From contig CAVSHT010000003.1 of NCBI GenBank assembly GCA_963727895.1, positions 64,001 to 128,000 on the forward strand: a stretch of DNA of 64,000 nucleotides. The letters run 5' to 3'. Below the pieces are notes generated by a model. That model ran no database searches. It was not told the DNA's origin and saw only the letters and a program-made list of their open reading frames with translations. Of this stretch, positions 36,281 to 39,977 are shown piece after piece (the stretch's first letter is position 1; each line of letters opens with the position of its first letter). The position numbers were made by a program, and so were the translations under genes. Source of the DNA: an uncultured Methanosarcinaceae archaeon (lineage in GTDB: Archaea > Halobacteriota > Methanosarcinia > Methanosarcinales > Methanosarcinaceae).

Positions 36281-37091
36281 TTACCTTCTTTTATACAAGA
36301 ATACACAAATTAGACAAATGATACCAGCACCTATTCCAAAACCGGGTGTCTTTGTGCTTCCATTCTCAGAATTATTTTGGGTAGTAGCGTTTGTCTGATC
36401 AGGCATTTGTTCAGCGTTTGTTTCTGTACTGTTTTGTTCAGAATCCTGCACGTTATGTTCAGATTGTGTTTCTGTTGCAGCTTCTGTTACATTAGCTGTT
36501 ACATTGCTTTGATTCTCAGAAGAAGCGCTGACGGTATTTGAATTTCCACTACTGCTGCTACTTACGCTGGCGCTACCGGTACTGCTCCCACTGCTCCCAC
36601 TGCTCCCACTGCTCCCACTGCTCCCACTGCTCCCACTGCTCCCACTGCTCCCACTGCTCCCACTGCTCCCACTGCTCCCACTGCTCCCACTGCTACTGCT
36701 GCTACTGCTACTGCTACTGCTACTGCTGCTGTCACTGGAACTACTTTCTTCCACACTTATTACTGCAGTTTTATAGGAAGTTCCATTTTCGTTACTTGCT
36801 GTTAAATTTGCTGTATAAGTTCCTTCTGAAGAATAAACATGAGTTGGACTCTCATCGGTTGATGTATCTCCATCTCCAAAGTCCCAATTCCATCCCGCTG
36901 CATTTTGCGAAAGGTCTGTAAACTGTACGGAAAGAGGGAAATCACCGCTGGTGACATTTGTACTGAAATTGCTAACCGGAATAGAGAAACACTCTGGATG
37001 AATCAATTTTGCAACCATTTCGATCGCATCTACAATCCGTGGTCCTCCTCTACTAATTGTATCAGCGTCAACAAGAATTAGATGGTTATTC
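36281..37091 (-). pseudogene. 3' remnant of substrate-binding + PKD + PGF-CTERM surface protein, truncated by an IS1 end
   Basis: SRGGPRIVDAIE, PKD, Ser linker, TPGF + TM + YKRR; N-terminus abuts IS1 TIR at 37092. Confidence 0.8.
36581..36688. repeat. Perfect 9-bp tandem repeat x12 (ACTGCTCCC; Gly-Ser-Ser)
   Basis: Direct count, 108 bp. Confidence 0.95.
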
Positions 37092-37625
37092 GGCATTGTT
37101 ACTTAACTATATCTAGTTATTTAGTTGGTATTGTTAACTAAACATAGTTAACTCTTTATTTCTTTATTTCATCAATAGAATAACCGAGTACTTTAGCATT
37201 TCAAGACTTTTTGTATAACACTTTGTTTTTCTTCTCAATCTTGCTAGAAAATGCCTCAATATGCTGTTATATCCTTCAACAGTGTACGTTTTTGCTTTGG
37301 ATTGAGTATGAATAGTTTCTGGAAGAAACTCTGCATATGCCCTCCAGTGATCTGTCATCACTTCTCCAATCTCTTTTTTCTTCAATTTTTCCCAGAGTAG
37401 TTTTCCAATTTCCGTTCCTCTGCTACCAAAAGAGCAGTTGATGAACTTTTTCCCAACTCTATCAACAGCAATCCAGATCCAGCAATATTTTTTTTTGTTG
37501 CCGATGTACGTGTGCATTTCATCCATTTCAACAATAGAGATCTCATTTTCACTTTTTAGGTCCTCTAACTCCTGACCAAATTTCTTTATCAATTTTTGGA
37601 CAGAAACATGACTCACCCCTAAAAC
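37092..37625 (-). mobile_element. IS1 5'-truncated copy with two stacked right ends
   Basis: TIRs GGCATTGTTA (37092) and GGTATTGTTA (37127); InsB homology; A9 fusion. Confidence 0.9.
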
Positions 37626-37656
37626 GCACATGCTTTTCTTCGAATAACAAGCACAA

Positions 37657-39147
37657 CTAATGAAAGTACTCTCCGTTCTTTTTTTTGACTATTAAGCCCT
37701 CATTACCTTGGGCAGTAAGGTTGTCTCGATTTTGGTTTTTCAAAACCGTCCTAAAACTAATCAGTGAATTGCCATCGAAGGCTCAAGTGTGACTTTGATC
37801 ACGGATGCTAAATTGGCCTTTTAGGCAATTCCACTGCCCAAATAAATTTGGTGATCTAATTTGATTGAAGTCATAAACAAAGCTTGTGGTTTAGACATTC
37901 ACAAACTCTTTTTCATTGCTACAATTTTCAGTAGATCTGGTGAAAAACAACAGCAACGTTTCAACAGAGATGATGAAGGAATTTTAGCCCTTAAAAATGG
38001 GGTAATATCAGAAAAATGTGATGTTGTTGCATGTGAATCAACCAGCTACTTTTGGGTTCCGATTCATGATTCATTGGTAAAGCATCTAACTGTGATAGTT
38101 GGAAATGCGCGAGATATGAAGGTATTTACCCATAAAAAACAGATAAGATTGACTCAGAAGTCATTGCACAACTTGCACTTAATAATATGATTCAGCCATC
38201 AAGAGTTTTTCCAAAGGATCATATAGATTTTAGATCATATGTTCGACTTCGGTTAACACTTGTACAAAAAAGAACAGATTTAAAAAATAAAGTTCACTCA
38301 ATTCTTGCATCTGAAATTCAATTCTTGCATCTGAAATGCTACACCTGAATAATGTGCTGACAGACGTTTTTGGCAAGAATGGCAGAATGATCTTATTAGG
38401 AATCTCTTCAGGTAAGAGTGTTGATCAGATTATTGCAAGCCTCTCTCCAAATGTTCGGAAAAAAGCTGCTCAGATAAGAGAAATTCTTGATCGAGAAATT
38501 TCTCAAAGTGCTGCATTCAGACTTCAGATCTGTCTGAAACTCATAAAAAGTCTTGATGATGAACTCGAAGCTTTAGAAAAAGAAATTTTCAATTATGCTT
38601 CTCGAAATCATAAGCTAGAAATGGAGATTTTAATGTCAGTTCCAGGTATAGGGGAACTTGGTGCGGCAATTTTACTTGCTGAAATAGGCAACTTTAAGAA
38701 TTTTTCTTCTGGAAATAAGCTTGCTTCTTGGCTTGGTCTAGTCCCTAATGTGTATCAATCTGCAGATAAATACTATAACGGCAGAATCACAAAGAGGGGA
38801 TCAAAAGTAGCAAGGTGGATTCTGACACAGATTGCTCAAGCAGCAGCAAGAAAGAAGAATAGCAGGTTAAAAGAGTTTTTTAACAGAAAAAAGAAGTCGA
38901 TTGGACATGCAAAAGCAATTATTGCCTTAGCAAGGAAAATTGCAACTGGCATCTTATTACAAACGATGAGATGGACGAAGATGAAACCGGATATCAAAAG
39001 GGAGAAATCCAAAAGAGAAAGATTATTGAGACTGAGATTTTTTAGGTTGATGAACGGATTAAAATAATTAGTGGAATATTTGCGGTTATGGGGAAAAAGG
39101 ATCAAGAGAGCACGTGAGGATAATCTCCTCATGTACTTTCATGCTAA
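37657..39147 (+). mobile_element. IS110 family element (recombinase pseudogene 37861-~39115)
   Basis: CGLDIHK, ACEST..W.P, SVPGIG...AEIG, GLVP..QS motifs; frameshifts; 20-bp duplication 38298-38337; subterminal IR ATGAAAGTAC/GTACTTTCAT; CTAA at both junctions. Confidence 0.85.
37700..37845 (+). ncRNA. Candidate IS110 bridge/seek RNA
   Basis: Nested stems TTGGGCAGT/ACTGCCCAA, GAATTGCC/GGCAATTC, GGTTTT/AAAACC, GTGA/TCAC; loops contain CTAA. Confidence 0.65.
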
Positions 39148-39441
39148 ATAGAAAAAAGGTATGTAAATACTTAAAGCTAACTAATAATTCTTGGAGAGTA
39201 AATGAAACTCACGTTAAAGTAAAAGGAAAATGGAAATACCGTTATCATGCAGTTGATTCAACTGGAAACGCAGTTGATTTTCTGCTAAGTACAAAGCGTG
39301 ATAAGAAAGCCGCGAAAAGTTTTTTAAGAAAGCTTTGAGGTTTAATCAGAATCAAATTCCAAGGGTAATAACCGTCTATAAAAATCCAGCTTATCCACCT
39401 GTTATAGATAAACTGAAAAATGATAAAATACTGCCTAAAAA
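39148..39441 (+). pseudogene. IS6 family transposase fragment
   Basis: SWRVNETHVKVKGKWKY.YHAVDSTG..VDFLLS..RD..AA..F. Confidence 0.85.
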
Positions 39442-39592
39442 GGTTCCGTTGCAAAAATCTTCTTCTTACACTTTTAGGCTATAATTGGTACCTTTATGTA
39501 CTATTTTTATGGGTGATGAGAATAGTTAACTTTCCTAATTATGAAGGTTTTCAACGATTATGTAAAATAACCAGATTTTTTGCAATAGAACC
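39442..39592. mobile_element. IS6-ended MITE
   Basis: GGTTCCGTTGCAAAAATC...GATTTTTTGCAATAGAACC. Confidence 0.75.
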
Positions 39593-39620
39593 TTTGGATA
39601 GGCCCTAAATACAAATATTT

Positions 39621-39977
39621 TCAGGTTCTCCCGTATTTATCCTCAAGCCTCTCTATATCGTCTTCCCCGAGGTAATTTCCCTGCGCGATTTCAACAAAAA
39701 CGAGATTTTTATTGTCTATATTTTTTACACGATGTATCTCGTGTACCAGAAGATCAACAGAATCGCCTTCCAAAACCTTGATTTCACTTTCATTTTTGGT
39801 TACAATTCCCTTTCCACTGATTATGTACCAGTGCTCGCTTCTGTGAGAATGACGTTGAAGTGAGATTTCACTATGGGGTAATATAGTAAGGATTTTGACT
39901 TTATATCCTAGCCTCTGCATAATCACCTCATAGTGCCCCCAGGGCCTTTCTGACTCATTTTTGCATTTTGAACTCAC
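39621..39977 (-). CDS. Cupin, type II mannose-6-phosphate isomerase C-terminal domain-like
   Basis: RPWG.Y, SLQRH.HRSEHW, GNYLGEDDIERLEDKYGR. Confidence 0.9.
   Translation of the reverse strand: MSSKCKNESERPWGHYEVIMQRLGYKVKILTILPHSEISLQRHSHRSEHWYIISGKGIVTKNESEIKVLEGDSVDLLVHEIHRVKNIDNKNLVFVEIAQGNYLGEDDIERLEDKYGRT

Follow-up and report, generated by a model that had tools for sequence, protein, structure and literature searches.

RNA-guided recombinases of the IS110 and IS1111 families of insertion sequences (ISs) are under development as programmable tools for DNA insertion, excision and inversion, and the characterised examples are, to our knowledge, all bacterial. In IS621, as described in the parts of the two papers drawn on here and below (Durrant et al. 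2024, PMC11208160; Hiraizumi et al. 2024, PMC11208158), each loop of the bridge RNA consists of a stem, a left guide, a stem-loop and a right guide, the left guide lying 5' and pairing with the bottom strand. For IS1111-family seekRNAs, the corresponding parts of another study (Siddiquee et al. 2024, PMC11187229) put the top-strand match first (5') and the bottom-strand match second, the opposite of the order in IS110-family ISEc21. In that account, seekRNAs are 58-96 nucleotides (nt) long and hold target matches only, and end recognition may differ in the IS1111 family. IS1111 elements have subterminal repeats of 11-13 base pairs (bp), extensions of 7 bp and 3 bp, and a non-coding region that is usually downstream of the gene; the few with an upstream non-coding region, such as ISMtsp17, are mentioned in those parts without description. 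A 2026 COMPASS preprint, in the portion drawn on here, catalogues bridge-RNA variants across bacterial and archaeal genomes and leaves the archaeal ones unnamed. Our literature search found no paper pairing "bridge RNA" with "Methanosarcina," the supplements of Durrant et al. 2024 and of the COMPASS preprint being places where the family may be listed. Here, we describe a defective IS110-family copy in a 64,000-nt stretch of DNA (hereafter the window) from an uncultured Methanosarcinaceae archaeon. We consider it very probable, from comparison with homologous copies, that it is a non-autonomous archaeal element whose left non-coding end encodes a guide RNA of ~134 nt reading both the target and the right element end.

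Structure of the predicted guide RNA and its two loops

The element, its predicted RNA and its gene are located in the window as follows.

37619..39148, + strand: defective IS110-family copy, with limits from flank alignments (23 left and 21 right ends)
37708..37841, + strand: predicted guide RNA of the bridge RNA/seekRNA type, ~134 nt, a three-way junction closed by stem P1 (37708-16 / 37833-41)
37719..37762, + strand: target-binding loop (loop 1), with closing stem GGTTG (37719-23) / TAATC (37758-62) and hairpin 37734-47
37766..37831, + strand: donor-binding arm (loop 2), with stems P3a (37766-73 / 37824-31) and P3b (37777-82 / 37816-21) and hairpin 37788-92 / 37799-803
37783-87: 5' strand of loop 2, TCAAG, without assigned partner
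37804-15: 3' strand of loop 2, GATGCTAAATTG, which holds ATGCTAAA (37805-12), equal to the right terminus
37861..39045, + strand: broken recombinase gene (DEDD RuvC-like and Tnp domains), in open reading frame (ORF) pieces 37861-38190, 38187-38348 and 38336-39067

A preliminary description of this DNA had proposed a two-lobed fold 5' of the recombinase gene, and its parts can all be read in the sequence. The outer stem is formed by TTGGGCAGT (37708-16) and ACTGCCCAA (37833-41). The first lobe contains the hairpin GGTTTT (37734-39) / AAAACC (37742-47), followed by GTCCTAAAAC (37748-57), while the second is built of the stems GAATTGCC (37766-73) / GGCAATTC (37824-31) and AAGGC (37778-82) / GCCTT (37816-20), capped by GTGA (37789-92) / TCAC (37799-802), and includes ATGCTAAAT (37805-13), which is identical to 39141-49. 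The segment 37700-37845 folds with a minimum free energy of -42.3 kcal/mol (z = -3.05), a value as good being found in one of 200 shuffles. An Rfam scan of 37000-39800 found no relevant family, its single match being a chance long non-coding RNA (E = 0.25).

When the 330 nt upstream of the gene were aligned in 24 homologues, they showed a near-invariant scaffold broken by short variable blocks. The structure that was tested comprises the stems of the preliminary description plus the closing stem 37719-23 / 37758-62 proposed by RNAalifold. In these 24 close homologues, 94.9% of cells are paired and five pairs show a change on both sides (a plain MAFFT alignment points in the same direction with less power). 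A covariance model made from the structure gave 41 matches in 45 sources, just one of them in the window, and some of the matches sit in elements whose recombinases are only 33-54% identical. Among 34 distinct sequences, 93.4% of cells are paired, compared with at most 46.2% when the partners are slid, and compensatory change occurs in 22 of 37 pairs, compared with 8.3 ± 1.7 in shuffles (0 of 500); in P1, it affects eight of nine pairs. This comparison shows that the non-coding region 5' of the recombinase gene is a conserved and covarying structure, which places a structured non-coding RNA in the long non-coding end, as in bridge RNA and seekRNA systems.

As for loop 1, it is a 10 × 10 internal loop. 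Its 3' strand GTCCTAAAAC has the same sequence as the left flank (top strand) followed by the A-run, and its 5' strand (37724-33) is complementary to the right flank. The longest exact matches of the window copy are CGATTTT (37727-33) and CCTAAAA (37750-56), and the guides of its class read CCTA-AAA(A)-TCG. The variable blocks of the RNA are both strands of this internal loop, together with one base of the loop-2 strand. We compared guides and flanks in ~70 copies from Methanosarcina, Methanospirillum and Methanoperedens, anchoring left junctions on the constant AAAC (three left junctions without this anchor were excluded), stripping the A-run on the right and counting only unique (guide, flank) pairs. 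The left flank matches the 3' strand at 210 of 248 positions (62 sites, 15 classes), compared with 104.7 ± 21.3 (maximum 185) when the guide classes are permuted. The right flank matches the reverse complement of the 5' strand at 193 of 276 positions (69 sites, 22 classes), compared with 121.2 ± 14.3 (maximum 170). On both sides, none of 20,000 permutations reached the observed matches.

The same agreement can be seen class by class. The consensus of the left flank equals the guide for CCTA, ACTA, CAGA, AGAA, GAAA and GATA, and that of the right flank, where the top strand of the target is the reverse complement of the guide, for TAAG, GTAA, TCGG and TGAA. Written as left flank / right-flank target, the classes include GATA / TAAG (12 left and 13 right sites), CAGA / TAAG in M. 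spelaei (CAGA at 11 left sites, nine of them in M. spelaei, and TAAG at 13 right sites), CAAA / GTAA, ACTA and AGAA. Loop 1 contains two segments that are complementary to opposite strands of the target, overlap at the insertion point and change with the target, as expected of a bridge RNA or seekRNA. The preliminary description, which expected the loop of lobe 1 to covary with insertion sites, was right about the 3' strand but had missed that the 5' strand is a guide as well. Small-scale guide variation is also apparent from sequence within the window's own genome, in which four copies have C changed to T in one loop-1 strand and also in the other (at the equivalents of 37727 and 37750; TCTTGATTTT with TCTAAAAC) and one further copy carries only the first of these changes.

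The 3' strand of loop 2 follows the element's own right end. Its 8-mer equals the last eight bases of that end in 62 of 72 copies, through seven matching states (ATGCTAAA, ATGCCAAA, ATGGAAAA, ATGTTAAA, ATAGAAAA, ATAGGAAG and ATGCAAAA), as expected of the left-donor guide of a bridge RNA or seekRNA. The right donor half consists of the A-run, four variable bases and CATG, and a guide for it was not found in the RNA. As a candidate right-donor guide, GUGAC-UUU (hairpin 37789-96), which partially matches AAA-CG-CAC, was dropped, both partners being almost invariant. Separately, one homologue (L052:1239-1478) has an insertion of ~95 nt in the loop of the small hairpin of its target loop and a donor 8-mer that differs from its own right end; it is probably a decaying copy.

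These comparisons also redefine the junction core, previously given as CTAA. Only the A-run is constant across the family, the C and the T being variable (T, C, A or G). From the loop-1 and loop-2 comparisons, the C of "CTAA" is specified by the target guide and the T by the donor guide; the two therefore belong to separate guides, and only the A-run is common to donor and target. Since loop strands track both the insertion-site flanks and the right terminus across homologues, the earlier proposal of a programmable guide is strengthened.

Element limits, insertion sites and recombinase gene

The window's own genome (3.67 megabases in 19 contigs, 84% complete) contains ~23 copies of the element, and alignment of their flanks defines its limits. 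On the right, 21 of 21 ends are identical through 39148 and diverge from 39149. On the left, where ten copies have a flank in common for >250 bp, copies with unrelated flanks turn alike only from 37616-37619, the common sequence beginning C-TAAAAC at 37619. CTAA is present at 37657-60 and 39144-47, where the preliminary description had placed the two junctions. The right junction (39144-48) agrees with the alignments, but the left one does not: the true left end, by coincidence also a CTAA, is 38 bp further left. The circle junction that had been built from 37657 is therefore wrong, that position being 38 bp inside the element. Because the two ends share the run CTAAAA (37619-24) / CTAAA (39144-48), the exact crossover is ambiguous. 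On our model, the left flank would extend up to 37621, the core would be AAA (37622-24 and 39146-48) and the element proper would span 37625-39148, a placement of the core that is supported by the comparison of empty and filled sites given below. The ends comprise the following features.

37622..37659, + strand: left terminal extension, in which the A-run and CGCA (together 7 bp, 37622-28) precede a degenerate palindrome opening with CATG (37629-38 / 37642-51)
37660..37669, + strand: left subterminal inverted repeat, ATGAAAGTAC
39133..39148, + strand: right end, made of the repeat GTACTTTCATG (39133-43), CT (39144-45) and the A-run (39146-48)

The 10-bp subterminal inverted repeat noticed previously, ATGAAAGTAC (37660-69) / GTACTTTCAT (39133-42), is borne out by the sequence, and its left and right copies change together in Methanospirillum (CATGAAAAAC / GTTTTTCATG). 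The left terminal extension is kept in all homologues. Its palindrome (37629-37651), of which the first CATG is 7 bp in from the left terminus, is degenerate in the window copy, and 9 of 10 of its pairs are formed in other copies from Methanosarcina. In Methanospirillum, its sequence is quite different and the palindrome, of 8+8, is perfect.

The window copy is flanked by parts of two transposase genes.

37164..37621, - strand: left flank, an interrupted IS1-family transposase gene (PF03400; NF033558, 155.7 bits)
39149..39338, + strand: right flank, from the interior of an IS6-family transposase gene (PF13610)

The usual target is the IS1 gene at about codon 69, in ...IGRFLGVSHVSV..., and the element occupies 14 of 235 such IS1 sites in its own genome. 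This region of the target is presumably the helix-turn-helix region, judging by IS1 InsA. The genome is crowded with this IS1-family element, and the insertion of the IS110-type element in its transposase gene is a case of one IS preying on another. The empty and filled sites read as follows.

Empty site ...ACCC-CTAAAA-CTCTTCC (CCCCTAAAA-CTCTTCC): 133 copies
Empty site ...ACCC-CTAAAAA-TCGTCC: 45 copies
Filled left junction: ...ACCC-CTAAAA-CGCAC (CCCCTAAAA-CGCAC)
Filled right junction: ...CATG-CTAAA-CTCTTCC (CATGCTAAA-CTCTTCC) or CTAAAA-TCGTCC

Apart from the shared A-run, nothing is duplicated, and the empty site has one A more than the right junction. None of the 235 sites has only three A before CTCTTCC. 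The missing A would therefore be explained if the donor junction had three A and crossover took place in or at the A-run; the junction of the excised circle would then read ...CATGCT-AAA-CGCACATG..., i.e., GTACTTTCATGC(T)-AAA-CGCACATG. No circle-junction or tandem-copy sequence was present in the own genome or in any of the homologous loci examined, so the three-A junction stays inferred. Among filled sites, the minor IS1 variants with TCGTCC make up more than their share (7 of ~14, compared with 46 of 221 empty ones), a difference that carries little weight as the copies are not independent.

The IS1 gene does not continue in the right flank of the window copy. As seen from alignment to intact IS6-type copies, this flank starts inside the IS6-type gene, at a site like CCTGAAATCGAAAAG. 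The IS6-family gene has tens of copies in the genome, and the site at which the flank starts resembles the guides. An IS1 flank on one side only is found in nine of 20 full-length copies (the window copy and eight others), which points to recombination among copies or to rearrangements that the element itself has caused. The window copy is thus a dead element with hybrid flanks, the left one from an IS1 gene and the right one from an IS6-family gene, and is nested between two other ISs.

That the recombinase of this copy is dead, as had been stated, is clear from the ORF, which is in three pieces and contains three frameshifting indels relative to an intact sister copy. The latter, on contig C4 of the own genome, has an open frame of 390 amino acids (aa), with an N-terminal DEDD RuvC-like domain (PF01548, 63.5 bits; cut-off 29), a C-terminal Tnp domain (PF02371, 91.8 bits) and a match of 261.3 bits (cut-off 140) to NF033542, "IS110 family RNA-guided transposase." The window fragments score 22.3 and 20.4 bits for PF01548, below the cut-off, and 95.8 bits for PF02371. 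Two of the lesions are deletions, of 1 nt after 38134 and of 7 nt after 38946, and the third duplicates 20 nt in tandem (extra unit 38298-38317). RNA-library contigs of relatives are without the duplication, and one run also restores the 1-nt and 7-nt deletions, which agrees with these being lesions of the window copy. The non-coding regions of the window copy and the intact one differ at two positions only, 37673 and 37697, neither of them within the fold, so that the window copy could still be moved in trans and is probably mobilisable in this way.

The 20-bp tandem duplication (38298-38339 region) is present in 17 of 20 full-length copies of the own genome. It splits the gene into an N-terminal ORF of 162 aa (the RuvC-like part) and a C-terminal ORF of 238 aa starting at an internal Met. 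This form of the element has spread, as copies with the duplication occupy three or more sites outside IS1. The idea that the duplication creates a working two-piece recombinase was rejected, as both ORFs are open in only two of the 17 duplicated copies.

Comparison with described systems and alternative readings

The element shares with the IS1111 elements for which a seekRNA has been described (ISEc11, ISKpn4, ISPa11 and ISPst6, in the same parts of PMC11187229) a DEDD/Tnp recombinase, the absence of target duplication, subterminal repeats of ~11 bp and a short extension past the right repeat. Here, the repeats are 10-11 bp (37660-69, 39133-43), conserved and covarying, which compares well with ~11-13 bp in that group, and the CT plus A-run beyond the right repeat (2-5 bp) fits its 3-bp right extension. 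The order of the guides is also that of IS1111, the segment complementary to the top strand being 5' of that complementary to the bottom strand, with matches that overlap in the target. Unlike in IS1111 elements, the host is archaeal and the RNA is upstream rather than downstream of the gene, the upstream non-coding end being ~240 nt and the downstream one ~100 nt. Moreover, 35 nt separate the perfect left repeat from the A-run, where IS1111 elements have 7 (or 6) bp; only the first CATG comes after exactly 7 bp. The likeness to IS1111 is one of guide order and repeats.

As in IS621, the RNA is upstream of the gene in a long left end, with one target and one donor loop, each loop consists of stem, guide, stem-loop and guide, the guides overlap on the core of donor and target, and the target is ~11 nt (PMC11208160, PMC11208158, for the parts considered). 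In contrast to IS621, both loops have the reverse guide order, an A-run takes the place of CT as the core, the loops are arms of one three-way junction instead of tandem stem-loops, and no right-donor guide was found. The sigma-70 promoter that is formed at the circle junction of IS621 cannot apply in an archaeon. Similarity to the IS621 protein is detectable in the Tnp domain only (E = 3.6e-9, residues 224-362), and the only relatives of the 390-aa protein with a solved structure, the IS621 and ISCro4 recombinases, are alike in this domain alone. There, the Ser of the query motif Y-Q-S aligns with that of Y-E-S in IS621, which is probably the catalytic serine S241. As with ISEc21 (IS110 family; PMC11187229, same parts), the natural target of this RNA-guided IS is a conserved coding stretch in the transposase gene of another IS. 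However, ISEc21 targets IS3-family genes and has the opposite guide order, whereas the genes here are of the IS1 family and, once, the IS6 family.

Together, these features constitute the mixed architecture that had been proposed, an upstream RNA as in the IS110 type being combined with 10-11-bp subterminal repeats and, as we now find, the guide order of the IS1111 type. The family is a variant of a known system, not a new one. While the window alone is ordinary, a dead copy between two other ISs in an IS-crowded genome, this well-populated archaeal family would be a natural starting point for RNA-guided tools in methanogens: its target is a simple N4-AAA-N4, its guides can be read and have been "reprogrammed" many times in nature, and probably intact copies occur in cultured strains of both Methanosarcina and Methanospirillum. 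The family would also be a test case for the relation between the two known layouts (IS110 and IS1111), for the expression of such an RNA without a bacterial junction promoter, and for the need of an RNA guide at all four DNA half-sites.

By analogy with the IS621 bridge RNA (PMC11208160, PMC11208158) and the seekRNAs of IS1111 elements and ISEc21 (PMC11187229), within the parts of these papers used above, we propose the following mechanism. The 240-nt left non-coding end would encode the guide RNA 37708-37841, which would fold into a three-way junction and be bound by the recombinase. This DEDD/serine recombinase, supplied by the single intact copy in the own genome, would use the RNA to join the junction of the excised circle with an N4-AAA-N4 target, crossover taking place in the A-run without target duplication. 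A bolder version, to which we give only limited credence, is that an archaeal lineage (Methanosarcina, Methanospirillum, Methanoculleus and Methanoperedens) possesses a distinct compact bridge RNA. Both loops would be arms of one closed three-way junction, and the RNA would read three of the four DNA half-sites. The right donor half would be read by the protein, via the module of CATG palindrome and subterminal repeat in the long left extension, and expression would start from an archaeal promoter inside the element, instead of a circle-junction promoter.

Several points weigh against a guide RNA that reads both target and right end. The match of the right guide in the own genome is modest, with a mean of 2.3 of 4 for the main class, and the commonest IS1 variant, CTCTTCC, fits this guide poorly. 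Flanks are shared among many copies, so that the sites are not all independent, and the carrier IS1 may itself have spread. The 34-sequence alignment was fitted to the covariance model and leans towards the structure for that reason. RNA-library contigs covering 37700-37855 and the gene (four runs from three studies) come from relatives, and contigs cannot show transcription, ends or strand; nor is the higher figure for the contig over the non-coding region readable as a higher level. The donor 8-mer differs from the right end in 10 of 72 copies, some of which are decayed or hybrid, and two may be mis-anchored by the search pattern. Finally, an exact k-mer scan found no RNA stretch of at least 6 nt complementary to the right donor half, and no RNA segment was seen, when homologues were read by eye, to track the variable bases after the A-run. 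With no right-donor guide, the "bridge" is therefore three-quarters documented.

This last point, together with published seekRNAs of 58-96 nt that contain target matches only and the possibly different end recognition in IS1111 elements (PMC11187229, in the parts cited), is what speaks for loop 1 being the sole guide, i.e., a short target-selecting seekRNA, with arm 2 serving as a protein-binding scaffold and the identity to the right end reflecting a shared protein motif or recognition without RNA. However, the 8-mer and the right terminus vary together over seven states, also at bases that are not part of the inverted repeat. This would not be expected of a fixed protein motif, and we regard the explanation by loop 1 alone as improbable. 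An even lower probability is assigned to a classical IS110-group bridge RNA of the IS621 / ISEc21 kind, with two independent stem-loops, a bottom-strand left guide 5' of a top-strand right guide, a CT core and no real subterminal repeats. The RNA is indeed upstream, in a left end (~240 nt) longer than the right one (~100 nt), as in the IS110 group (PMC11208160, same parts). Yet the guide order, the reverse of that in IS621 and ISEc21, contradicts this reading. In addition, the core consists of an A-run, subterminal repeats of 10-11 bp are present, conserved and covarying rather than absent or very short, and both loops are under one closing stem in which eight of nine pairs covary.

Least credible of all is that the upstream region is a leader or regulatory structure of the recombinase mRNA and that its flank matches are by-products of A/T-rich sequence. 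Guides and flanks are A/T-rich, and the permuted baseline is accordingly high (42% of positions on the left, 44% on the right). But the observed matches exceed all 20,000 permutations on both sides, and class-specific G and C are matched as well, e.g., in CAGA, TCGG and ACTA.

Distribution of the family and neighbouring features

Matches (E ≤ 1e-40) are present in 64 of 284 genomes of the order and in eight of its 31 genera, own genome included, and two genomes (G219 and G227) have six open-frame copies each. The named relatives are M. spelaei MC-15 (pieces at the ends of contigs), Methanosarcina sp. DH2 and metagenome-assembled genomes (MAGs) of Methanosarcina, and also Methanospirillum purgamenti (54% identity, five copies; strain J.3.6.1-F.2.7.3), a Methanoculleus MAG and Ca. 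Methanoperedens (41%). Plasmid matches of the recombinase carry generic names, and the enterobacterial ones align in the Tnp domain alone. Contigs L087, L108, L109 and L115, in bacterial MAGs (Oricola, Deltaproteobacteria and Cloacimonadota), have copies that are 54-84% identical to the Methanosarcina recombinase and show the same RNA scaffold; these seem more likely to be mis-binned archaeal contigs than products of transfer. In the RNA libraries, 24 runs contain just 8-10% of the sampled words. A candidate archaeal TATA box in the T-run at 37679-86 was discarded, Methanospirillum homologues having no such run at that place.

Beyond the left flank, at 36281-37096 on the - strand, there is an ORF of 271 aa with a long Ser/Gly-rich repeat (SSGSSG...) and a C-terminal hydrophobic tail, which by its sequence looks like a surface protein.

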